Shown piece by piece: positions 4,382-21,371 of a stretch of 64,000 bases of DNA. The first letter of the stretch is position 1. Each line of letters opens with the position of its first letter. The position numbers and the translations under genes were made by a program. The stretch is from Botryllus schlosseri. Lineage: Eukaryota. The notes beneath the pieces are model-generated. The model was not told the DNA's origin, did not search any database, and worked only from the letters and a program-made list of their open reading frames with translations. Location of the stretch: contig CM119372.1 in NCBI GenBank assembly GCA_051294905.1, positions 14,758,001-14,822,000 on the forward strand, given 5' to 3'.

Positions 4382-4509
4382 GTACGCTTTTGAAGTGGCA
4401 AGCATCCGGTCGTATATGGGGTATGAAACCTGGCTGGCGTCAGCATAAGCAAATTGCTACGTCAGTTAAAATATAAGACGACGACAGTAGTTATATAGAT
4501 CGGTCGTGA

Positions 4510-4800
4510 GGTGGCAGGGGGTTCTTATGGGTGCGGCGGCACGGTGCCGAGAAACTCGTGGTGGCACGGTGACCCTTATCTCTTATGGGTGCGGTGACAC
4601 GGTGCCATTGTGTCTTATGGCGGGGGTGGCACGGTTACCTTTTCAGGTATAGGCTGCGGCGGCACGGTGTCGTGAAAACTCGTGGTGGCATGGTTACCTT
4701 TTCGGGTATAGGCGCGGTGACATGGTGACCTTTCAGGTAGAGATGATTTGACTAACGTTGTTGGTATAGGCGCAGCGGCACGGTGATGTATGGTAAATAG
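4510..4800. repeat. GC-rich subterminal motif array (GGCACGGTG-like) near the element end; mirrored at ~18065-18355
   Basis: At least 8 copies of G(C/T)G(G/A)CA(C/T)GGT(G/T) interleaved with TCTTATGGG and GGTATAGGC. Confidence 0.85.
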
Positions 4801-6679
4801 TCACGTGATTGGTACTTAGTTAATGTGTATATCCCAAATTATTATATATGACCGGTCCGAGTCGATCCCAACGTTTACGGTGAGTGCGACAATGATATAT
4901 CGTTATTCTTATGACCGCGGCGACACGGTTGCGTATCTGATATAGACGCGACATGATAACGTTACAGGTATAGGGATCGCTCACACGGTGTTACATGAAG
5001 ACGTCGTAGTTCAGTCGTGACAAATGACCGATCGTGTTCTAAGTCTTTCCTCGCTATTGATCGCTAGCTGAATAAGACTTCAGATCGGATTATTCGCACC
5101 CTGTATACCGCTGTTTCGCACCTACAGAATAGTCTGCTGTTCAAAGTCAAAACAAGAATCACAAGTATACACATTTATACATTCATTCATTACTGTCAAA
5201 TCAAACTAAAGCACGCACAATCGTATCATTAACTTTTTTTTTTTTACCATCACCCAAAATAATTCAAGTATTCCTTGGCTGAAAATCGTTGAGTCCTTAT
5301 TATCAAAAATGTTATGGTGCGGTGTCGGAATCCATTCGCAGGATGTACTAAAGGTAAATTCAGATAATCCACCCGCGATCGCTCACAAGATAATACCTAA
5401 GACATAACCATCGCTCGCGACTCGCTGTTACATACATACCGATCGTTAACAATGTAATATTTTGGTAATTGGTTTGCCACAGAGCCGGCGTAGACGGCGA
5501 TTCGAATACCAACAATAGCAGCGTTCACAAACCAACACTTCAAAAAACGCGTGAAATAGGTTACAAATCCCACGATTGCTCACAAGATAACACCAAAGAC
5601 ATAGCCATTTCTCGCGTCTTGTCATTACATACATCCCAATCGCTACAGTGTAATATGTCGGTGGTTGTTTGTTACTATCAAGTAATAAGTAATGAATAAC
5701 AGTACCAACGCAGACCGTGATTCGTAAACCAACAATTTGACACTTTCTGGCGGTCGCTATATGTTTTGACACTTTGGAACGTGGTTGACTTTAGTTGTAT
5801 GATAAGAATCATGCGAACATTCAAGCAATGTGTCAATTTGTCAACTTGAAATGAAACTTACTACACAGCTCAAGTTGATTCGTATCTGAATGTGTTAATT
5901 CGGTACAATTCTAATTAATTTGAGAAATGTTATCGTGATCTTTTGATTCGACCGTAACCTGAATATTACTGACGCCGACTTTCAGCCACATTGAATTATT
6001 CGCACATTCCGCGCCGCTGTTTTCACACCTATAGAATCAATACCAACTATAACTCTACAAGAATCAAGAATCACAAGTATGTGCATTATACAGTTATTGT
6101 CGTTGTCAACTTCAAATCAAACTCTTAATACAAACACACATCTTATCACTTGTCAACTCTATCATGAAAATCCTCGAACCTGTATTATTAAGAATGTTAT
6201 AGTACGGCATCGGAATCCACTCGCGAGATGTACTGAAGGTAAATTGAGATCACCCAAAATGAAATATTTGGACTTTGACATAGTCTGAATTGCAATAGAT
6301 TGACAAACATGACTACCAACTTTCAACCCATACATATTTAGAGATTATGCGCATGTTGATTTGAAACAAGTAATGACCATACAACTCTATTCACGACTGA
6401 GTTTTCCGTTTGTCAAATAGAGTTTCAGTAAATAATTTCACTGTACTATCATGATATTTAAATGTGCTACTACACACAATAGAATCAATCAATGAAATAG
6501 CACCTGTTGTAAATATTTCTTACTTGACAACCACTTGTACATACCGCGATCGAGTTGCGACACGATGAGTTAAATGGGAATATTTCCATCTATTTGTCGA
6601 AACCTTGTACAAGCTATCTGGTTATTTTTTCGTTGCAATTGAGTTAACGGAAATAGTATTACGTCTCGACATCTTACCA

Positions 6680-8615
6680 TCTTACCATACTCCAAAGAGC
6701 CAACAAGGAAAAACCTTGTCAAGTAAATCGTTTGTAACTCACCCAATCAACTCAATCAGTATCAGTATGAAAACAGTCAAGCATACACGAGTCCATACAA
6801 TCGCTACAATCTAAAATCCGTAGCAGGTTCGGTTTTAGGCATATACCGTCAACTCGTCTTTTTTGTTCAACTGTAAAAGTCGTTACTATTCTGCGAGACA
6901 AAGAAATTACTATGCGGTATATTTTGTAAGATAAAAGTAATTACTTCTCGGTGCCGGCGACTTGAGATTAACATAATACGTTTCAGTATGCGAGATTTGA
7001 AAGTCTGCCCAACATGTTGAGAATTCATTTCTTACAATCGAACGCAGGTGTTATATTGAAAATTATCATGATGTAAACATAAGGATTGACACATTGATTT
7101 GACACATGTAATAGTTGATCATGACTTGATTATTAAATTATTTGCGGTAATTAGACCCGGCGTTGTGGTAAAGATTATTGTGACAGCAACAAACTTTTCA
7201 GTACCATTGTTATTAACATATTGATTTGTAAAACTATACTTGTCTGAAATGTTCTTGATTTGGAAGATATTCCGTGTTGGTACAAATCACTCTGCGTATT
7301 GCGGATATCAGAAAATATTTTACAAATGTAATTGTTTCCAGTACCCAAGACTAAAGATGAAACAACAATTTCGTTTGCTGATTAACAACCGGTACAATAC
7401 TTTATCATCATAAGCCGCGGTGAGAATTGAAACCCTTTCGCGCATTACCCGGTGTCAAGATATCACACTAGGTGAATTGACATACCGCCGCTTGAATAAT
7501 ACCTAATCCGTTCGCACCATTTCACATACTTTGATCATTACAAAAGTAAATTGTGATATGTTTGTTAGATGCACCCAATTCAGTTAGAAATGTCTGGTGC
7601 ACAACAATTGTAATATCAAAAAAGTACTTGCTACACTGTTATTTGCTAAACGTGTTTTGCATTGTTGTTCATTTGTTGTATTGATTGAAATTGTTCTCGA
7701 ACCCTCAAATAATAATTCCTGACATGAAACCAAGCCGCTGAAAGTCGTTACCATCACGAAGATACAATGTGTACGATGTTTGTCAAATGTGTCCTACCTG
7801 GCCAACAGAAAACAATTTTCACTCACTCGAAATGAAACCAATGTGATGGTCTCCATTCGATATTTTGTTTGTGTCAAATACTTTGCAATGAACACATTTG
7901 CGTGGTTGAGCTTTACATCATCAAGCTGTTATTTGTAAATCAAGATTTCGGTAAACTTGTAAATGCATCGTTTAACTAACCGACATTTAGTGATTGGGGA
8001 ACATATCAGACGATACACATCCATCTCCGAAATACTGCATTGATCTTAATTTCCATCATCGTGATAATTGAAGTACATTTCTTTCGAATTCGTAACAACC
8101 GACTATGACATGATAAATTTTTGACAAGTTATGCTTGGTTGGAAGATTGGTTGGGTTGCATATCGCGAAAAAAATAATATACCACTCATATTGATACTGT
8201 TACTCCATTGATCGATATTTTCAAACGAGTAAAATTTATTACTTGAGTTTCCCCGCTTAATGTAAATGAAAACTCAACCGTCTTTTAACATCACAAAGAC
8301 ATTGATAAAAAGTAGGCAATCAAACACAACACTTTGTACGACACTAATTATTGTTCCACACATCTCATTTCATACTAAGTGTATACGAAAGATATTCATG
8401 ACACATGAAAATATTCCCATGCTACAAACCTGTACAATGAGTGGTGGTGCTTTCAAACTGTTTCGATATCACAAGAACTTTATTGTCTGAATGGGTGTTC
8501 ATGTATCTTAATAATCAAATAGTTCAACACAGAACTAGTACGAACAGAAACATCAGAGTTGTTTACACAAAAGTTTGTATGTGCACAGTATGCGAATACC
8601 ATGTGTAAGTCCAGC
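6680..8615 (-). pseudogene. Mirror copy of decayed pPolB relic, left arm
   Basis: Reverse complement of 14250-16185. Confidence 0.5.
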
Positions 8616-9539
8616 ACAATTGCGGTATCCATCCGAGTTTAGTTAACACAAATTTATTACAACGAACCACGTAAACTTTCGTCAAAGAAAAGCATACTCA
8701 CTTCCAGAGGGCTATGTCAACGCCATAGCAGTAAATCAGCTACTCCAACAAGAAAGTACATATGTTTTTTAGTCACGGTCCTTACATCTTTCACATAGAT
8801 CAATCTACTTTGCTAACGAAAAGTGCTGAGTCATCACATGATTGCCCTCACAACAAAACAGCTAGAAGATATTATCATACAAAAATATTCCTGACCCTTT
8901 GCGCACCAGTGACAAATCATACAACAAACATTTTTTGCGAGTCGAATTGTTGTTCAGTGTCAAGTCTACCTGTTGAAACGTACATTAAAACAACACAGTC
9001 ACAACTCAATTAAAACCACGAATCTATTTTCATTTCGTCACATATAGAAAAATAAATTTTCTTTCCCCAACACATACTTGTAACCAATCGCTTTCATTAA
9101 ACACACAACTCCATAAAAGTATTTACTTTCTACAACATAGACATTCCGATCTAGTCAAGAAATATTTTTATTAATCAAAATCATCGACTTCTGTTCGTTA
9201 GTGTGTGCATGTCATACCTGTGGGTCCCGTATTAAAATGGACACGACACGACTGAATGTAAGGGGTACAAGTCTATCGCATCGATTTACACGTGGTCTTC
9301 GCTACGGTTTCAAAAAACGAATCATCTCTTTTGCATTGATCGAGACCGAGCAAGTTAGTTAATGGCCATGATTGTGTTTGTCATATGCGAATAATAGGGT
9401 TACTGTCAAATCTACATACAACAACCTTCTGGCACTCATAATAGCAATTTCATTCTCTCCCTTCGTAATTGTATACTCACGACAAGTATATTGTACAACT
9501 CGACAGCTACGTTTAACAAGACCAACGACACTGAGCCCA

Positions 9540-9985
9540 CGACGTTTACCTATGTAAAATTACCACTTTCACTTGGCAGTCCATCGTTTACCTGACTAAA
9601 CATATCATTTTCCTTTGGAGATCTGACGTTTACCCAGAGTAAGAAACCATTTTCACTTGGAAATATATTTTTCCCTAGGTAACAAACCTTTTTTCACTTG
9701 GAAATATATTTTTTCCCCTGGTAACAAACCTTTTTCACTTGGAAATATATTTTTTCACCGGGTAACAAACCTTTTTCACTTGGAAATATATTTTTTCTCT
9801 GGGTAACAAACCTTTTTCGCTTGGAAATATATTTTTTCCCTTAGCAACAAACCATTTTCACTTGGCGGGTCGTCGTTTACCTGAGTAAAAATATCATTTT
9901 CCTTTGGAGATCTGGCGTTTACCCAGTGTAACAATACATTTTCTCTTGGTCATCTAGCTTTTCCTAGAGTAACAAAACCATTTTT
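9540..9985. repeat. ~40-bp minisatellite inside the palindrome arm (mirrored at ~12880-13325)
   Basis: About five close copies of TTTTCACTTGGAAATATATTTTTTCCCxGGTAACAAACC (~9645-9865) flanked by diverged copies. Confidence 0.9.
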
Positions 9986-10279
9986 CATTTTGAAATCTGA
10001 CAAACACACCTGACAATTTGGTATTTGTTGTATTGACGATAGTTTGAAATAGATTACAACGAACAGTGACGGAAATATACACGGGCTACCGGTTTCAGAG
10101 TATACCCCCATCAGTCGTATCACATCAATATCATCGATTAACCACATACAATATGCTCTTGTACACCGAAATGCATGTTTTGGAAAATCGGACTATAGGC
10201 TTCGATAGTTCTGTGATGTCCGGGATCGTGCTTTGGATTTTCCAGAGTCAAAATGTCTGAATAAAACACCTCCTCGACG

Positions 10280-10972
10280 ATGGTTGGTATGTGGATAACG
10301 GTGTTCGGAAAACGGTTGGATTTATGTCACCCATCGCGAGTTTTCCCCCCGCATGTTTACTATATTGTGTCTTTATTGGTCAATGTATGTCTCGACATTC
10401 AGTTTGAAATCGGAAACCCTGATAAAGTACGTAACCGGATCCGGATATCAACTCTGAATCGAAAAACCAATGAACAAAGTAAACATGCTACACCCTCTGT
10501 TTCCACGAAAAAATACCATCCAGACATACGTCGCGCTTGTTTGCCCACACCAGTATACGCGTAAATGGAGGTGTGTGACATTGCATGCAATGTGTTGGTA
10601 TACAAACATCGATCCACAGACATTATCATAGCCGGTAGTTTTGATGTAGATCGAATGTCACCTGATAACAATGTCATACCAATAAGCCACATTGCAATGA
10701 CTCTGGGTCTGCGCTATTACATCGATATTTCGACGCCGTTCACTGATTTACTCGATGGTGTTATCGTGTTGTTACATTGCAAGATAGTCATGACCCTATC
10801 TCCCGACAGATCACCCAGACCAATTGGATACATCGTCAATATCCGTCGTGTTGTCGACACCGAAATTTTCTGTTGTACAGCGTTTGACCAATGTGAACTA
10901 TCGAAGTACGGTGCTCGAAATGATTGCGATCAGTCTTTCACTAAATCACGGGATGTCGCTACTCCCACATAA
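10280..10972 (+). pseudogene. Possible decayed EEP (APE-like endonuclease/phosphatase) domain; mirrored at 11893-12585 on -
   Basis: Two abutting same-frame ORFs (10280..10564, 10565..10972) split by one stop; DIIIAGSFDVD resembles IIxGDFN, LLDGV resembles the LD motif, SPDRSPRPI resembles SDHxPI. Confidence 0.3.
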
Positions 10973-11653
10973 CGACTCCAGGTAAATATCGTGAACAGTG
11001 ATTCTGAAAATCTCGGACTGATACTGTGATCCAATAAGGTGTGTTTCTGTGGAATCTGCAATCGTACACCACAATAGAACACTACCTCGTGATTTCACAC
11101 GCAATCATAAAACACACTTTTGTAAGGGTCCAATTCGTCCGGTGACATTTCGAAACGGTCATCGCTACAAGAGATCGGGTTGGTCTCGTCATATCGGTAG
11201 CATTTTGACACTGTCATCACCACAAGGCTATTGACGTCGTTTCGGTTCGTCATGTCAATCCGTTTTATAATTTACCGTTTTTCAACTCCCCGCACCATAG
11301 TGTTACGACACAGACAAGAAGCATCGGTGGAAATAATAAAACACGGAAGGCACACTTTGGTGTTATTTGACATGGATTTTACACCAGACGAACCTCACAT
11401 TCGAGCGATGTATTTGAATGGCGATTGTATTATTGACATCGAAGGAAAAGAAATGTATCGATTTATCGGTTTCGTACATATCCAACAAAAACTTGGGTGT
11501 ATGATTGTGCACGGTTCACATATTTGACTGTGATCACAATATTGGTATGTACTGTAAAGTTCACTTTCTCTGTCAAAGGTAGTCGTGCGAATACCCATGT
11601 TATGGTTTCTATGTTTGTGTGTCCCATTCGAATTGTGTGTCCATTCGAATTTG

Positions 11654-14600
11654 GTGTCAAAATGCTACCGATATGACGAGACCAACCCGATCTCTTGTAG
11701 CGATGACCGTTTCGAAATGTCACCGGACGAATTGGACCCTTACAAAAGTGTGTTTTATGATTGCGTGTGAAATCACGAGGTAGTGTTCTATTGTGGTGTA
11801 CGATTGCAGATTCCACAGAAACACACCTTATTGGATCACAGTATCAGTCCGAGATTTTCAGAATCACTGTTCACGATATTTACCTGGAGTCGTTATGTGG
11901 GAGTAGCGACATCCCGTGATTTAGTGAAAGACTGATCGCAATCATTTCGAGCACCGTACTTCGATAGTTCACATTGGTCAAACGCTGTACAACAGAAAAT
12001 TTCGGTGTCGACAACACGACGGATATTGACGATGTATCCAATTGGTCTGGGTGATCTGTCGGGAGATAGGGTCATGACTATCTTGCAATGTAACAACACG
12101 ATAACACCATCGAGTAAATCAGTGAACGGCGTCGAAATATCGATGTAATAGCGCAGACCCAGAGTCATTGCAATGTGGCTTATTGGTATGACATTGTTAT
12201 CAGGTGACATTCGATCTACATCAAAACTACCGGCTATGATAATGTCTGTGGATCGATGTTTGTATACCAACACATTGCATGCAATGTCACACACCTCCAT
12301 TTACGCGTATACTGGTGTGGGCAAACAAGCGCGACGTATGTCTGGATGGTATTTTTTCGTGGAAACAGAGGGTGTAGCATGTTTACTTTGTTCATTGGTT
12401 TTTCGATTCAGAGTTGATATCCGGATCCGGTTACGTACTTTATCAGGGTTTCCGATTTCAAACTGAATGTCGAGACATACATTGACCAATAAAGACACAA
12501 TATAGTAAACATGCGGGGGGAAAACTCGCGATGGGTGACATAAATCCAACCGTTTTCCGAACACCGTTATCCACATACCAACCATCGTCGAGGAGGTGTT
12601 TTATTCAGACATTTTGACTCTGGAAAATCCAAAGCACGATCCCGGACATCACAGAACTATCGAAGCCTATAGTCCGATTTTCCAAAACATGCATTTCGGT
12701 GTACAAGAGCATATTGTATGTGGTTAATCGATGATATTGATGTGATACGACTGATGGGGGTATACTCTGAAACCGGTAGCCCGTGTATATTTCCGTCACT
12801 GTTCGTTGTAATCTATTTCAAACTATCGTCAATACAACAAATACCAAATTGTCAGGTGTGTTTGTCAGATTTCAAAATGAAAAATGGTTTTGTTACTCTA
12901 GGAAAAGCTAGATGACCAAGAGAAAATGTATTGTTACACTGGGTAAACGCCAGATCTCCAAAGGAAAATGATATTTTTACTCAGGTAAACGACGACCCGC
13001 CAAGTGAAAATGGTTTGTTGCTAAGGGAAAAAATATATTTCCAAGCGAAAAAGGTTTGTTACCCAGAGAAAAAATATATTTCCAAGTGAAAAAGGTTTGT
13101 TACCCGGTGAAAAAATATATTTCCAAGTGAAAAAGGTTTGTTACCAGGGGAAAAAATATATTTCCAAGTGAAAAAAGGTTTGTTACCTAGGGAAAAATAT
13201 ATTTCCAAGTGAAAATGGTTTCTTACTCTGGGTAAACGTCAGATCTCCAAAGGAAAATGATATGTTTAGTCAGGTAAACGATGGACTGCCAAGTGAAAGT
13301 GGTAATTTTACATAGGTAAACGTCGTGGGCTCAGTGTCGTTGGTCTTGTTAAACGTAGCTGTCGAGTTGTACAATATACTTGTCGTGAGTATACAATTAC
13401 GAAGGGAGAGAATGAAATTGCTATTATGAGTGCCAGAAGGTTGTTGTATGTAGATTTGACAGTAACCCTATTATTCGCATATGACAAACACAATCATGGC
13501 CATTAACTAACTTGCTCGGTCTCGATCAATGCAAAAGAGATGATTCGTTTTTTGAAACCGTAGCGAAGACCACGTGTAAATCGATGCGATAGACTTGTAC
13601 CCCTTACATTCAGTCGTGTCGTGTCCATTTTAATACGGGACCCACAGGTATGACATGCACACACTAACGAACAGAAGTCGATGATTTTGATTAATAAAAA
13701 TATTTCTTGACTAGATCGGAATGTCTATGTTGTAGAAAGTAAATACTTTTATGGAGTTGTGTGTTTAATGAAAGCGATTGGTTACAAGTATGTGTTGGGG
13801 AAAGAAAATTTATTTTTCTATATGTGACGAAATGAAAATAGATTCGTGGTTTTAATTGAGTTGTGACTGTGTTGTTTTAATGTACGTTTCAACAGGTAGA
13901 CTTGACACTGAACAACAATTCGACTCGCAAAAAATGTTTGTTGTATGATTTGTCACTGGTGCGCAAAGGGTCAGGAATATTTTTGTATGATAATATCTTC
14001 TAGCTGTTTTGTTGTGAGGGCAATCATGTGATGACTCAGCACTTTTCGTTAGCAAAGTAGATTGATCTATGTGAAAGATGTAAGGACCGTGACTAAAAAA
14101 CATATGTACTTTCTTGTTGGAGTAGCTGATTTACTGCTATGGCGTTGACATAGCCCTCTGGAAGTGAGTATGCTTTTCTTTGACGAAAGTTTACGTGGTT
14201 CGTTGTAATAAATTTGTGTTAACTAAACTCGGATGGATACCGCAATTGTGCTGGACTTACACATGGTATTCGCATACTGTGCACATACAAACTTTTGTGT
14301 AAACAACTCTGATGTTTCTGTTCGTACTAGTTCTGTGTTGAACTATTTGATTATTAAGATACATGAACACCCATTCAGACAATAAAGTTCTTGTGATATC
14401 GAAACAGTTTGAAAGCACCACCACTCATTGTACAGGTTTGTAGCATGGGAATATTTTCATGTGTCATGAATATCTTTCGTATACACTTAGTATGAAATGA
14501 GATGTGTGGAACAATAATTAGTGTCGTACAAAGTGTTGTGTTTGATTGCCTACTTTTTATCAATGTCTTTGTGATGTTAAAAGACGGTTGAGTTTTCATT

Positions 14601-17600
14601 TACATTAAGCGGGGAAACTCAAGTAATAAATTTTACTCGTTTGAAAATATCGATCAATGGAGTAACAGTATCAATATGAGTGGTATATTATTTTTTTCGC
14701 GATATGCAACCCAACCAATCTTCCAACCAAGCATAACTTGTCAAAAATTTATCATGTCATAGTCGGTTGTTACGAATTCGAAAGAAATGTACTTCAATTA
14801 TCACGATGATGGAAATTAAGATCAATGCAGTATTTCGGAGATGGATGTGTATCGTCTGATATGTTCCCCAATCACTAAATGTCGGTTAGTTAAACGATGC
14901 ATTTACAAGTTTACCGAAATCTTGATTTACAAATAACAGCTTGATGATGTAAAGCTCAACCACGCAAATGTGTTCATTGCAAAGTATTTGACACAAACAA
15001 AATATCGAATGGAGACCATCACATTGGTTTCATTTCGAGTGAGTGAAAATTGTTTTCTGTTGGCCAGGTAGGACACATTTGACAAACATCGTACACATTG
15101 TATCTTCGTGATGGTAACGACTTTCAGCGGCTTGGTTTCATGTCAGGAATTATTATTTGAGGGTTCGAGAACAATTTCAATCAATACAACAAATGAACAA
15201 CAATGCAAAACACGTTTAGCAAATAACAGTGTAGCAAGTACTTTTTTGATATTACAATTGTTGTGCACCAGACATTTCTAACTGAATTGGGTGCATCTAA
15301 CAAACATATCACAATTTACTTTTGTAATGATCAAAGTATGTGAAATGGTGCGAACGGATTAGGTATTATTCAAGCGGCGGTATGTCAATTCACCTAGTGT
15401 GATATCTTGACACCGGGTAATGCGCGAAAGGGTTTCAATTCTCACCGCGGCTTATGATGATAAAGTATTGTACCGGTTGTTAATCAGCAAACGAAATTGT
15501 TGTTTCATCTTTAGTCTTGGGTACTGGAAACAATTACATTTGTAAAATATTTTCTGATATCCGCAATACGCAGAGTGATTTGTACCAACACGGAATATCT
15601 TCCAAATCAAGAACATTTCAGACAAGTATAGTTTTACAAATCAATATGTTAATAACAATGGTACTGAAAAGTTTGTTGCTGTCACAATAATCTTTACCAC
15701 AACGCCGGGTCTAATTACCGCAAATAATTTAATAATCAAGTCATGATCAACTATTACATGTGTCAAATCAATGTGTCAATCCTTATGTTTACATCATGAT
15801 AATTTTCAATATAACACCTGCGTTCGATTGTAAGAAATGAATTCTCAACATGTTGGGCAGACTTTCAAATCTCGCATACTGAAACGTATTATGTTAATTT
15901 CAAGTCGCCGGCACCGAGAAGTAATTACTTTTATCTTACAAAATATACCGCATAGTAATTTCTTTGTCTCGCAGAATAGTAACGACTTTTACAGTTGAAC
16001 AAAAAAGACGAGTTGACGGTATATGCCTAAAACCGAACCTGCTACGGATTTTAGATTGTAGCGATTGTATGGACTCGTGTATGCTTGACTGTTTTCATAC
16101 TGATACTGATTGAGTTGATTGGGTGAGTTACAAACGATTTACTTGACAAGGTTTTTCCTTGTTGGCTCTTTGGAGTATGGTAAGATGGTAAGATGTCGAG
16201 ACGTAATACTATTTCCGTTAACTCAATTGCAACGAAAAAATAACCAGATAGCTTGTACAAGGTTTCGACAAATAGATGGAAATATTCCCATTTAACTCAT
16301 CGTGTCGCAACTCGATCGCGGTATGTACAAGTGGTTGTCAAGTAAGAAATATTTACAACAGGTGCTATTTCATTGATTGATTCTATTGTGTGTAGTAGCA
16401 CATTTAAATATCATGATAGTATAGTGAAATTATTTACTGAAACTCTATTTGACAAACGGAAAACTCAGTCGTGAATAGAGTTGTATGGTCATTACTTGTT
16501 TCAAATCAACATGCGCATAATCTCTAAATATGTATGGGTTGAAAGTTGGTAGTCATGTTTGTCAATCTATTGCAATTCAGACTATGTCAAAGTCCAAATA
16601 TTTCATTTTGGGTGATCTCAATTTACCTTCAGTACATCTCGCGAGTGGATTCCGATGCCGTACTATAACATTCTTAATAATACAGGTTCGAGGATTTTCA
16701 TGATAGAGTTGACAAGTGATAAGATGTGTGTTTGTATTAAGAGTTTGATTTGAAGTTGACAACGACAATAACTGTATAATGCACATACTTGTGATTCTTG
16801 ATTCTTGTAGAGTTATAGTTGGTATTGATTCTATAGGTGTGAAAACAGCGGCGCGGAATGTGCGAATAATTCAATGTGGCTGAAAGTCGGCGTCAGTAAT
16901 ATTCAGGTTACGGTCGAATCAAAAGATCACGATAACATTTCTCAAATTAATTAGAATTGTACCGAATTAACACATTCAGATACGAATCAACTTGAGCTGT
17001 GTAGTAAGTTTCATTTCAAGTTGACAAATTGACACATTGCTTGAATGTTCGCATGATTCTTATCATACAACTAAAGTCAACCACGTTCCAAAGTGTCAAA
17101 ACATATAGCGACCGCCAGAAAGTGTCAAATTGTTGGTTTACGAATCACGGTCTGCGTTGGTACTGTTATTCATTACTTATTACTTGATAGTAACAAACAA
17201 CCACCGACATATTACACTGTAGCGATTGGGATGTATGTAATGACAAGACGCGAGAAATGGCTATGTCTTTGGTGTTATCTTGTGAGCAATCGTGGGATTT
17301 GTAACCTATTTCACGCGTTTTTTGAAGTGTTGGTTTGTGAACGCTGCTATTGTTGGTATTCGAATCGCCGTCTACGCCGGCTCTGTGGCAAACCAATTAC
17401 CAAAATATTACATTGTTAACGATCGGTATGTATGTAACAGCGAGTCGCGAGCGATGGTTATGTCTTAGGTATTATCTTGTGAGCGATCGCGGGTGGATTA
17501 TCTGAATTTACCTTTAGTACATCCTGCGAATGGATTCCGACACCGCACCATAACATTTTTGATAATAAGGACTCAACGATTTTCAGCCAAGGAATACTTG

Positions 17601-18378
17601 AATTATTTTGGGTGATGGTAAAAAAAAAAAGTTAATGATACGATTGTGCGTGCTTTAGTTTGATTTGACAGTAATGAATGAATGTATAAATGTGTATACT
17701 TGTGATTCTTGTTTTGACTTTGAACAGCAGACTATTCTGTAGGTGCGAAACAGCGGTATACAGGGTGCGAATAATCCGATCTGAAGTCTTATTCAGCTAG
17801 CGATCAATAGCGAGGAAAGACTTAGAACACGATCGGTCATTTGTCACGACTGAACTACGACGTCTTCATGTAACACCGTGTGAGCGATCCCTATACCTGT
17901 AACGTTATCATGTCGCGTCTATATCAGATACGCAACCGTGTCGCCGCGGTCATAAGAATAACGATATATCATTGTCGCACTCACCGTAAACGTTGGGATC
18001 GACTCGGACCGGTCATATATAATAATTTGGGATATACACATTAACTAAGTACCAATCACGTGACTATTTACCATACATCACCGTGCCGCTGCGCCTATAC
18101 CAACAACGTTAGTCAAATCATCTCTACCTGAAAGGTCACCATGTCACCGCGCCTATACCCGAAAAGGTAACCATGCCACCACGAGTTTTCACGACACCGT
18201 GCCGCCGCAGCCTATACCTGAAAAGGTAACCGTGCCACCCCCGCCATAAGACACAATGGCACCGTGTCACCGCACCCATAAGAGATAAGGGTCACCGTGC
18301 CACCACGAGTTTCTCGGCACCGTGCCGCCGCACCCATAAGAACCCCCTGCCACCTCACGACCGATCTATATAACTACT
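11654..18378. repeat. Right arm of giant inverted repeat (6,725 bp)
   Basis: Reverse complement of 4486-11211; identical mirrored ORF translations in the ORF track. Confidence 0.97.
14250..16185 (+). pseudogene. Heavily decayed protein-primed family B DNA polymerase (pPolB) relic, right arm; 5' limit approximate
   Basis: Motif ghosts in the expected order, needing frameshifts: FEGSRT 15156-15173 (~FxGGRT); DIT..LC.PDI 15248-15276 (~DxxSLYP); GIIQA 15362 and HRVM 15411 (~G.IK...HPVLP); N-PGL 15701; Y-ETYYVNF 15877-15901 (~YxDTDSVIF); DK....LFG-Y 16145-16178 (~DKR...PFGY). Recognised by eye, not by HMM. Confidence 0.5.
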
Positions 18379-18896
18379 GACGACTCCTCGGTCCCTTGAT
18401 TTTAGACCGGTTCTTCTTGATGCGGATCAATTAATGATTCAGCGAATACGATATCCACCAGCTTTCTGGTATGTGGCATATATAGTCAAAGTAATCACAG
18501 GAACTCTCGTGCACCATGCGCAAGACGCACATGAACTTCACATTTCATAGGTGGTTTTCCGTATCTAAAATTATAAAACAATAATTTTGAATGACGATGT
18601 AGGCTACAATCTATCTACCAGTATGGTGAATGTGGATGCTAAATACTCTTCGCTGAACAGTTACTGTCTCTTTGAGCTGGTTGTTGTTGTCATTATTTTC
18701 AGTGCGTTGCGACACTATTGACCGATGCAATTTCTTGTATAGGTTTCTGCATTGCAATACTGCACTGCAATACAATATTACAATAGATATATAACTAGAG
18801 CTGGACACTATGACTAGAGTACTCGCATCTAAATCCAGTATTAATTCTAGTGTTGAGAGATGATTTTATCTAATACTGAAATCGTACGCTCTAAGC

Positions 18897-21371
18897 CAGG
18901 GGTCGCCAACACGCGGCCCGCGGGCCGCATGCGGCCCGCGAGGTCATATTTTGCGGCCCGCGAACCCATTTGAAATTTTGAATGAATACCGAGTAAATAA
19001 TATTGAAATGCTGAAATTAATTCCAGTTTCAAAATGTTGTTGTTGATCAAAATAATCTATTCTCATGTGACCTACATTATTTTCACTCACTCGTTGAAAA
19101 CGCATTGGCGATGGTAATTCCAGTCCCTCGAGAGATGATCAGCTGATAGGAAGTGGTACACTTGGTGACGTAATAATGGACCAGACATTGACAATGATCG
19201 AGACGCATAGGCCTACAAACAGTTCGATACTTCCTCACCTCATACGCGTACTAGGTGAGTTGTAGTCTGGAATCGTGTTTCTCGCGATTTTTCTTCCCCA
19301 CATACTTACGATGCCCAAAAGAAAGATATCGGACGAGAACAGGACATTTCAGGAAATATGGGAACTGAACTATTTCGTTTCAGAGTGCAACGGCCAAATA
19401 CAATGTCTGGTCTGCTATTCTACCATTGCTGTCCGAAAGGAATACAATGTTCGTCGCCACTATGAGTCTTTACACAAGGATAAGTTTCAAGACTATACCG
19501 GAAAACACCGTGAACAGAAGTTGACGCAACTGAAGAATTCTTTGAATAAGCAGCAGAGCCACTTCTCAAATCTGAAAAAAGCAAATGAACTGTCAGTTAA
19601 AGCCAGTTTTGCCCTATCTGAAATGATAGCGCAGGACTCGAGACCATTTGTCGAAGGAAATTATGTGAAGCGATGTCTACTGAAGGCTAGTGAAATATTA
19701 TGCCCAGAAAAGATCAAGCTCTTCGAGGACGTCAGTCTTTCAGCCAATACAGTTGCTCGTCGTGTTACGGAATTGGCTGCAGACTCGTATCAACAACTAT
19801 CATCAATTGGAAAGGATTTCCAATCATTTTCATTGGCACTGGATGAGAGTACCGACATCACCGACAGCGCTGTCTTGGCTGTATTTGTCCGTGGAGTCGA
19901 CGGAGATTTTAACGTCACCGAGGAACTTCTGGATGTTCTGCCAATGAAAACTACGACGACAGGGCGAGACATATTCCGCGAGCTGAACAAATGTGTCGAC
20001 CATGCCGATTTGGATTGGTGTAAGCTGGTCTCAGTAGCCACCGATGGAGCTCCAGCAATGAGGTCAGAAAAAATAGGCCTAGTTGGGCTTCTACGAAACA
20101 AGATGACGACATTAGGCGTTCCTATCCATGCCATACATTGCATTATACACCAAGAGGCATTGTGTAGTAAATATTTGGGAATGAGTGGTGTTATGAACGT
20201 AGTAGTGAAAACCGTGAATTTCATTCGCTCGAGGGGCCTGAATCATCGTCAGTTCAAAGCTTTCTTAGAAGCCACCGAGAGTGAGTATGGCGAAATATTA
20301 TACCACACGGAAGTGCGATGGCTCAGTCGTGGTAATGTGCTGAGACGTTTTTTCGCATTGAGAGAAGAGATTGGTTTATTCATGGCGCTGAAAGATGCAG
20401 ACGTGCCAGAGTTGGGAGACGCACAATTCATTTCTGATCTTGCGTTTTTATGCGATATTACGGCACATCTGAACGATTTAAACACTACATTACAAGGTCG
20501 AATGAAAGTTGTAACTGCGATGTACGATTCAATCAAATCATTTATGCGCAAACTGATGCTATGGACAAAGCAACTTGAAGTCGGAAACCTTGCTCATTTT
20601 GCAGCTCTCCGGTCGTTGACAACAGTCGAGCTCGAGAATATGAAGCAATATTCTGGTAAACTCATGTTGTTGAATACGGAATTCAATTCAAGATTTCAGG
20701 ATTTTAAGACTCTGGAAAATGAACTTGATCTTTTTGCTACGCCAATGACTATTGATGTCGAATCAGTCACCGAGGAATATCAAATGGAACTGTTGGATCT
20801 CCAATGTGACTCGGCAATGAAGGAAAGGTATTCGGAAGTAGCCTTGCCAGAATTCTTCAAGTACTTACCGCAGCATAAGTTTCCGAAGCTTTCTTCGCAC
20901 TTCCGGAAGATCCTCGCAATGTTTGGCAGTACGTATGTCTGCGAGCAATTTTTCTCGACCATGAAAATAAATAAATCAGCCTTACGCTCGCGACTAACAG
21001 ATGAGCATCTCAAAGCAATTTTGAGACTTGCGAACCAACGCTCCATCAGCCCTGACATCGATTCTTTAGTCGCTAGAAAGCGTTGTCAGGTCTCAAGCGC
21101 CGCGTATAATTAAATCATATTTGAAGTGATGATCATGATGTTTTTTTTCGTTGTATGGAAATTTCGGTAATAAACAATGTTTCTTTTGTCGTAATTACAT
21201 GCCTATGGCCACGTTAGGAAGTGCACGATGATGTAGTAGACTCAGTAGTGTTTCATAAACATGCTTTCTAAGCTGTATGGCGTGTTTATCTCGATACTAC
21301 ATTATTGCGGCCCGCGACCTCTTGCAAGTCTAAAAAGTGGCCCGCGACCCCTTTTGAGTTGGCGACCCCTG
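18897..21371 (+). mobile_element. Apparently intact autonomous hAT transposon, Buster/Charlie/SPIN-like, 2,475 bp
   Basis: 14-bp TIRs CAGGGGTCGCCAAC/GTTGGCGACCCCTG; 8-bp TSD CTCTAAGC (18889-18896, 21372-21379); subterminal GCGGCCCGCG repeats; one uninterrupted transposase ORF. Confidence 0.95.
19311..21113 (+). CDS. hAT transposase (GTF2IRD2/SPIN/Buster-like), ~600 aa
   Basis: Likely start MPKRK at 19311; zinc-finger-like CLVC...RRHYESLH, LALDESTD, VATDGAPAM, HCIIHQE, EVRWLSRG, and C-terminal FGSTYVCEQFFS dimerisation motif. Confidence 0.95.
   Translation: MPKRKISDENRTFQEIWELNYFVSECNGQIQCLVCYSTIAVRKEYNVRRHYESLHKDKFQDYTGKHREQKLTQLKNSLNKQQSHFSNLKKANELSVKASFALSEMIAQDSRPFVEGNYVKRCLLKASEILCPEKIKLFEDVSLSANTVARRVTELAADSYQQLSSIGKDFQSFSLALDESTDITDSAVLAVFVRGVDGDFNVTEELLDVLPMKTTTTGRDIFRELNKCVDHADLDWCKLVSVATDGAPAMRSEKIGLVGLLRNKMTTLGVPIHAIHCIIHQEALCSKYLGMSGVMNVVVKTVNFIRSRGLNHRQFKAFLEATESEYGEILYHTEVRWLSRGNVLRRFFALREEIGLFMALKDADVPELGDAQFISDLAFLCDITAHLNDLNTTLQGRMKVVTAMYDSIKSFMRKLMLWTKQLEVGNLAHFAALRSLTTVELENMKQYSGKLMLLNTEFNSRFQDFKTLENELDLFATPMTIDVESVTEEYQMELLDLQCDSAMKERYSEVALPEFFKYLPQHKFPKLSSHFRKILAMFGSTYVCEQFFSTMKINKSALRSRLTDEHLKAILRLANQRSISPDIDSLVARKRCQVSSAAYN

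Follow-up and report, generated by a model that had tools for sequence, protein, structure and literature searches.

Near-identical arms in diverged copies: a palindromic Polinton derivative of Botryllus schlosseri and its family

How does a chromosome come to hold 13,893 bp of DNA that are almost wholly their own mirror image, and what keeps the two halves alike? The element that raises these questions lies in a 64,000-nucleotide stretch of the Botryllus schlosseri genome (C2:14758001-14822000 of a 495-Mb, 219-contig assembly), here called the window. An earlier note on this DNA had read the element as a Polinton/Maverick derivative born of a single copy-back event. It overlooked the main puzzle: the arms of the palindrome are nearly identical within a copy and diverged between copies. 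Our answer, which we hold to be probable, is that the element belongs to a large family of helper-dependent Polinton satellites, whose arms are re-copied from each other during replication. Its interest lies more in the family than in a single accident.

The window DNA has eukaryotic character, with sparse open reading frames (ORFs) and a G+C content of ~40%. The element and its parts were located as follows.

4480..4485: left copy of the target-site duplication (TSD), GACGAC; the identical hexamer stands beyond the right end
4486-18378: palindromic element, 13,893 bp, from inverted-repeat and end analysis
4486..11211, + strand: left arm, 6,726 bp, non-coding
4486..5315, + strand: Polinton-derived terminal segment of ~0.83 kb, made of the terminal inverted repeat (TIR) and 160-175 bp of one-end-only sequence; starts with AGTAGT
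4560..4669: subterminal 32-bp tandem motif, 3.4 copies
9543..9984: 41-bp tandem repeat array, 10.7 copies, mirrored in the right arm
10709..11211, + strand: 503-bp stretch within the left arm, which in related copies is unique loop sequence upstream of the ORF; mirrored at 11654-12156
11212..11653, + strand: unique loop (spacer), 442 bp
11252..11527, + strand: loop gene, 91 codons and a stop, encoding an orphan protein
11614..11658: 17-bp tandem repeat across the junction of loop and right arm, with GTGTC present both in the repeat unit and at the start of the arm
11654..18378, - strand: right arm, 6,726 bp, reverse complement of the left arm, terminating in ACTACT
18379..18384: right copy of the TSD, GACGAC

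Global alignment of one half with the reverse complement of the other showed three differences in 6,726 bp (99.96% identity), located 749, 1958 and 2481 bp from the element end. Inverted repeat makes up 96.8% of the element, against ~97% in the earlier note, whose ~6.73-kb arms, 442-bp spacer, AGTAGT...ACTACT ends and GACGAC duplication were all confirmed by alignment and end inspection. The TSD is 6 bp long but stands within a short GAC run (three GAC units in the left flank). Tandem arrays cover ~0.55 kb of the 6.7-kb arm. The arms contain no Rfam family, no tRNA and no clean conserved reading frame, and every between-copy tblastx match contains stops. No ORF longer than 135 aa lies within 4486-18378, none of the six element ORFs tested has a Pfam domain, and the rve integrase of a related autonomous copy (C1c, see below) has no tblastn match in the element. 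The earlier note was thus right that such ORFs and an integrase are absent (Pfam, tblastn), but it missed a conserved and selected 91-aa ORF in the loop.

Is the palindrome real? Fold-back chimeras of long reads do yield perfect palindromes, and public sequencing runs give short contigs that break in the repeat. However, the 6-bp TSD joins two different flanks, each single-copy and without likeness to the other, and between the arms lies a unique loop whose gene is under selection. Eleven sequenced loci and 16 further probe pairs show this same architecture, with their own variants and TSDs. A fold-back assembly artefact is excluded by this recurrence, and we give it practically no chance. Words of the element are also abundant in two public runs from other studies (X4 and X15), where their summed depth far exceeds that of the flank. 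This depth fits a high-copy family and is not a copy number. All of this indicates a genuine palindrome, integrated as one unit. Since each flank is single-copy in the genome, there is no paralogous empty site in it.

Other copies were collected with two probes. A terminal 415-bp probe gave 50 matches (40 best of 2,246 first-look candidates scored), many of them as +/- pairs 8.6-32 kb apart. A 501-bp inner-arm probe gave 43 matches (40 best of 1,789 candidates scored). These genome match lists are best-scoring subsets, in which intact and window-like copies are over-represented. Ten paired-end loci were examined, and then one more (C11c). Palindromes were found at eight of the ten (C7a, C11a, C11b, C32, C9, C1a, C1b and C12), in C11c and in the window's copy; all 11 non-autonomous copies examined were palindromes. 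Counting copy C6, which was recognised solely by a pair of ends enclosing a central loop ORF, lengths were measured for ten palindromic or derivative copies. The palindromic copies have arms of 2.8-6.7 kb, 98.8-99.97% identical within a copy. Compared with the window element, other copies are homologous over most of the arm and the loop, at 65-94% identity and with many indels.

A perfect 6-bp TSD was present in all 12 elements with resolved ends, and every hexamer was different. This set comprises ten palindromic or derivative copies, the window's included, and two autonomous ones (the ends of C11c are not among them); the TSD of the autonomous copy C8 requires a 3-bp shift of its left end. 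The terminal probe thereby recovered the palindromic copies with different 6-bp TSDs that the earlier note had proposed to look for. With the inner-arm probe, 16 +/- pairs were found besides the window's (13 full, 3 with a truncated partner), together with nine singles whose partner was not among the matches scored. The genome probes gave 750-1,200 candidate copies, which are unverified, and at least 150 scored matches to the loop ORF. Common arm and loop sequence at so many loci points to a large, old and diversified family of one origin, and not to the single copy-back accident of the earlier note.

Several copies depart from the common form. C7a is a derivative with 4.4-kb arms, without the loop ORF and with a 2.3-kb insert unrelated to the family. 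C12, another derivative, is 8.6 kb long, with 2.8-kb arms and one inner arm single-copy. Both have an intact 6-bp TSD. Contig C3 (30392091-30431345) carries one '+' element end followed by three '-' ends at 12.9-kb spacing, an arrangement that resembles a tandem repeat of a whole or partial element. The copy at C11:8052700-8067500 is a mosaic relative to the window element, 94% identical around the loop and 81-90% in the arms. Comparable patchiness was seen against other copies, and such mosaic similarity suggests recombination between lineages. Runs labelled as three other organisms (B, C and D) contained 34-35% of the element's sampled 31-letter words, which may serve as a lead, and only that, to near-identical family members beyond the window's species.

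To which transposons do the ends belong? Two copies with the same ends, C1c (16,507 bp) and C8 (~15.4 kb), have TIRs of just 0.67-0.76 kb and a unique, ORF-rich interior. In C1c, Pfam detected an rve integrase core and a chromodomain (E 2.6e-16 and 4.4e-08) and a P-loop NTPase-like (ATPase-like) ORF. For a 1,207-aa ORF of C1c, the nearest atlas clusters (score 0.96) are 96-100% PF03175, the domain of protein-primed PolB, and 16 animal homologues were found (E 1e-74 to 1e-137), with PF03175 in 4 of the 16 (E 1e-106 to 1e-124). By their polymerase, integrase, ends and TSD length, C1c and C8 classify as Polinton/Maverick elements, and so the autonomous Polinton with the same ends that the earlier note had called for was found, with its integrase and polymerase-family ORF.

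The genome holds 38 scored matches to the polymerase ORF (of 374 candidates), and 34 of these are without stops. Because most polymerase ORFs have no internal stop, the genome's large Polinton population is apparently young. The scored matches divide into two groups. In the first, 89-94% identical to the query, the open frames measure 1,163-1,222 aa where the whole query was matched, and 1,089-1,135 aa in ten matches beginning at residue 135-160. In the second, 77-78% identical, they measure 1,295-1,300 aa. The Pfam model seems to miss this animal lineage, in that it passes over the 1,207-aa ORF though homologues match.

The window element shares with the autonomous copies just 4486-5315 and its mirror, at 79-88% identity. 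This terminal segment is 85.6% identical to one end of C8 over 864 aligned bp and 79-88% identical to C1c, and tblastn matches of the autonomous-copy ORFs in the element are confined to the same ~0.83 kb. The shared segment extends 160-175 bp past the TIR at one particular end of C1c and C8. Since both palindrome arms have this one-end-only sequence, both palindrome ends descend from a single Polinton end. The other ~5.9 kb of each arm is family-specific and resembles the autonomous copies neither in DNA nor in protein sequence.

Polintons reportedly have TIRs with AG...CT ends and a 6-bp TSD, and the window element agrees with this in its AGTAGT...ACTACT ends and 6-bp TSD. It has neither the enzyme genes nor the rve integrase of an autonomous Polinton. 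Its ends are common to an enzyme-encoding element, and its family has many copies with distinct TSDs of equal length. On these characters it classifies as a non-autonomous Polinton/Maverick derivative; the earlier note had said the same, and that it was integrated as a unit, and the shared ends and 6-bp TSD bear this out. We regard the structure, the family, the TSDs and the ends common with pPolB/integrase-bearing elements as established. The autonomous Polintons in this genome are plausible helpers, and the 32-bp subterminal motif may be a binding site for helper proteins.

Two other origins bear on this evidence. Most of the element is unrelated to Polintons, and other superfamilies include foldback elements whose inverted repeats are very long. 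The element might then be an independent foldback-type transposon that shares ends with Polintons by chance and is moved by another enzyme. We consider this very improbable, since ~0.83 kb per end is 79-88% identical to the autonomous ends, with non-TIR sequence included, and the terminal hexamer and the 6-bp TSD length are those of the Polinton copies. The sole ORF encodes 91 aa without a transposase signature.

The second is the origin favoured in the earlier note, a copy-back defective genome made once, de novo, from a full Polinton and then integrated. Both ends do come from one Polinton end, as that note had supposed, and the window copy has a private border shift that resembles a copy-back. 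Yet ~5.9 of the 6.7 kb per arm are without similarity to autonomous copies, by which this origin is refuted as stated, and the same arms and loop gene occur at 150 or more scored loci with 10-35% divergence. The doubling therefore took place in an ancestor of the whole family and not in the window copy, and we see very little likelihood in a de novo origin.

What, then, keeps the arms alike? In most copies the two arms differ by 0.03-0.2%, and divergence between copies is 10-35%. The position of the loop borders follows the clades: from the inner edge of the arm to the ORF, four copies have 542-548 bp upstream and 106-125 bp downstream, and two copies of a divergent clade have 656-678 bp and 51-73 bp. 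Borders common to the members of a clade, together with concerted arms, argue that the palindrome is ancestral and that both arms gained the same changes along each lineage.

The older copy C1b shows what happens after insertion. Its arms are 98.8-99.7% identical, a 946-bp element (TIRs of at least 18 bp, TA duplication) occupies the right arm alone (5167-6119 of the C1b locus sequence), and the opposite arm has a 349-bp deletion. The insertion and the deletion serve as markers of post-integration decay. Arm identity in C1b thus falls in place without being restored there, an argument for homogenisation during the mobile phase. In C32 and C1b the arms match each other better in their outer part than further in, and the reverse was seen in no copy. 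A 91% inner repeat within the 99.86% arms of C7a points the same way but is given little weight, because C7a is rearranged, with its foreign 2.3-kb insert.

The same family and helper dependence could also be combined with gene conversion in place, which would keep the arms identical, as it does in other large palindromes of genomes. The mode of replication would then have no part in it, and the integrase would perhaps just cut and paste the element. Intrachromosomal conversion finds good substrates in long inverted repeats that lie close together. Arm differences are scattered, without clear polarity, in 6 of 11 palindromic copies, and loop borders conserved within clades are as expected of plain inheritance. 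However, C1b keeps its one-arm insertion and one-arm deletion while its arms have drifted, so that conversion does not hold arms together indefinitely. Nor does conversion readily account for the 503-bp extension by which the palindrome of the window copy enters unique DNA at a microhomology. We judge conversion in place to be rather unlikely.

This extension concerns the inner border of the window copy. Its loop measures 442 bp, compared with 930-1,027 bp in six other copies, and the portion upstream of the ORF is just 40 bp. In C11a-type copies, 503 bp upstream of the ORF are unique sequence; in the window copy they belong to the left arm, and their inverted copy has been added beside the right arm. 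The inner-arm probe pair is spaced 1,864 bp in the window copy and 760-1,504 bp in 13 other full pairs. The extension is therefore private to the window copy or a small lineage. At the junction (11653/11654), the 17-bp tandem repeat ends in GTGTC and the right arm begins with the same letters, a microhomology of 5 nt. Such a junction would fit the footprint of a template switch, in which the growing strand moved onto the complementary arm and then copied to the end. The single-end origin, the concerted arms and the private border shift are, like the selection on the loop ORF described next, established.

Does the element encode anything of its own? Clustering of ORFs across all copies gave one conserved ORF, the 91-codon ORF of the loop (window 11252-11527). 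It is open in the window copy, C11a, C11b, C1b and C9. In C1a a single stop interrupts it, in C32 it is broken into two frames, and C7a and C12 lack it. A genome search gave 1,185 candidates, of which the best 150 were nearly full-length and 85-100% identical, with 143 of the 150 stop-free; as the best-scoring subset, these are biased toward intact copies. Pairwise ratios of non-synonymous to synonymous substitution rates (dN/dS) were 0.14-0.56, with dS up to ~1.3 between two clades. In nine sequences, the ratio of the corresponding proportions (pN/pS) was 0.38 in frame and rose to 0.75 and 1.33 when the frame was shifted; the three codon positions had differences in the numbers 420:249:577. 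These patterns indicate a gene under purifying selection.

The gene appears to belong to the palindromes. No homologue of its protein was found in the autonomous copies C1c and C8, and the 150 scored ORF matches are all more than 10 kb away from the 38 scored polymerase matches. A weak tblastn hint of likeness to the ATPase-like ORF of an autonomous copy was dropped (hhalign probability 0.2%). The protein has no Pfam match. A word-indexed search of 5.8 billion proteins gave one match, an unnamed 93-aa ENA protein with 85% identity, and a profile search of 1.84 billion representatives also gave one. In the atlas, solely unnamed clusters scoring 0.90 or less came up, a low recognition. An alignment scan of viral contigs and metagenome contigs gave no relative. 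AlphaFold, with a 10-row alignment, predicted an all-beta protein of eight strands at a predicted local distance difference test score (pLDDT) of 53, a model of too low quality for fold comparison. The loop product is, by these searches, an orphan protein.

Re-copying of the arms during replication could proceed as follows. The shared Polinton end would serve both as origin of protein-primed replication and as integrase substrate. Autonomous Polintons of the same genome would provide the polymerase and the integrase in trans, with integration making the 6-bp TSD. The palindrome would have a single origin, in which a half-length molecule was doubled tail to tail or copied back, and would have been inherited since. 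During replication, a displaced or newly made strand would snap back so that one arm pairs with the other, and the outer part would be re-copied from the partner arm, or mismatches in the stem corrected. Each new insertion would then begin with identical arms, which decay in place. In the window copy, one such copy-back would have shifted the inner border 503 bp inward. For protein-primed replicons, and for how they restore end homology, the standard model has the displaced strand pair as a panhandle; this model is still unproven (PMC11886824). A proposed model of Polinton replication also pairs the TIRs (bioRxiv 10.64898/2026.07.28.741278).

Length may add a further constraint. Nine of ten palindromic or derivative copies measure 12.3-15.0 kb, and three autonomous copies 15.4-16.5 kb. 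The earlier note had pointed to a length near that of Polintons, which holds, and to a packaging constraint, which stays conjectural. The lengths of the palindromic copies fit a packaging window. A packaging limit may keep the length at 12-15 kb, ~75-95% of the helper length, and the arms may act as stuffer.

Several points weigh against this reading. Young copies are also compatible with arm-to-arm gene conversion in place, and conversion is a serious rival. The gradient of higher identity in the outer arm consists of two clean cases (C32 and C1b) and the rearranged C7a. The length sample is small, and one copy of 8.6 kb (C12), with its TSD intact, falls below any size limit. On the side of the helper, the 1,207-aa polymerase ORF of C1c itself gets no Pfam match, a scan with motif patterns found no canonical motifs in it, and Pfam found no capsid or protease gene in the autonomous copies. 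For the 91-aa protein, the searches given above found no relative beyond this lineage, and the predicted fold is not a confident one. In ~6% of an RNA run (X23), 95 mostly partial element reads were found and none over the ORF at 96% likeness or more. Mobilisation in trans, extrachromosomal replication, the homogenising mechanism, packaging and the role of the protein are, finally, what we infer.

A stronger form of the satellite reading is possible, and we put it forward tentatively, as doubtful. The family would be a heritable satellite of Polinton viruses that is obligately palindromic and of which half bears information, one arm being rebuilt from the other in each round of protein-primed strand-displacement replication. 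The arms would be stuffer for the packaging window of the helper capsid, and the 91-aa protein the satellite's own factor, exploiting or interfering with the helper. If true, the copy-back junctions and concerted arms would be the first genomic footprints, in an animal germ line, of the extrachromosomal linear replication postulated for Polintons.

The replication mode of Polintons and their formation of virions are still models, and the palindrome family, with its several hundred integrated and near-perfect palindromes of 12-15 kb, offers natural test material for them. It would be the first described satellite-like Polinton parasite with a selected gene of its own. Long palindromes are usually considered fragile DNA. 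If the candidate counts hold, ~10-15 Mb of the 495-Mb genome would consist of them.

One neighbour of the element may be mentioned. At 0.9 kb to its right, a 612-aa ORF (window 19275-21113, + strand) combines a Spin-doc/C2H2 zinc finger with a hAT C-terminal dimerisation domain. By these domains it classifies as a hAT-type transposase or a gene derived from one.

How does the family compare with known systems? In the full-text literature, no description of palindromic or gene-bearing non-autonomous Polinton derivatives was found (Repbase and subscription journals are outside this scope). The sole match on non-autonomous Polintons or Mavericks concerns Tlr1 (PMC5499653).

With autonomous Polintons, the window element has in common ~0.83 kb of terminal sequence, the AG...CT ends, the 6-bp TSD and a near overall length. 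Unlike them, it is without a polymerase, integrase, ATPase, protease or capsid gene. Whereas the autonomous Polintons of this genome have 0.67-0.76-kb TIRs, the window element is 97% inverted repeat, mostly of non-Polinton sequence. The loop gene is its own, with no counterpart detected in the autonomous copies examined.

Foldback transposons (Drosophila FB, Galileo, Tetris) are likewise non-autonomous and consist nearly entirely of long inverted repeats around a short middle. Tandem sub-repeats make up most of their repeats, and their superfamilies and TSD lengths are different ones. In the window element, tandem arrays are a minor part of the arm, and the ends and 6-bp TSD are of the Polinton type.

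Copy-back defective interfering genomes of RNA viruses and transpovirons are also helper-dependent parasites that keep cis-acting ends duplicated from one end. Transpovirons are ~7 kb long, with short repeats and several genes. Defective interfering genomes differ in nucleic acid and polymerase, arise de novo and have no gene of their own. The window family resembles copy-back defective genomes in the origin of both ends from the same end, but does not consist of parental sequence arising de novo from the helper.

The nearest published case is that of butterfly Polintons, whose ~2-kb TIRs contain the hexon and adenain genes, of capsid and protease (bioRxiv 10.1101/2025.02.07.637071). They demonstrate that terminal repeats can extend far inward and duplicate internal sequence. 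Unlike the window element, these Polintons are autonomous and gene-rich, and the repeats take up a small share of their length.

The closest experimental parallel comes from helper-dependent adenoviral vectors and defective adenovirus genomes. They are linear replicons of the protein-primed type, without viral genes, dependent on a helper and in need of terminal repeats in cis (PMC4189039). Helper-dependent adenoviral genomes below ~75% of full length rearrange toward full size, among other things by doubling into inverted dimers; non-coding stuffer serves to bring them to packaging size, and a 15-kb vector was packaged as direct and inverted dimers (PMC4189039). The adenoviral inverted dimers described there are products of the laboratory or of a single infection and form no heritable lineages, whereas the window family is integrated in the germ line, diversified and endowed with a selected gene.

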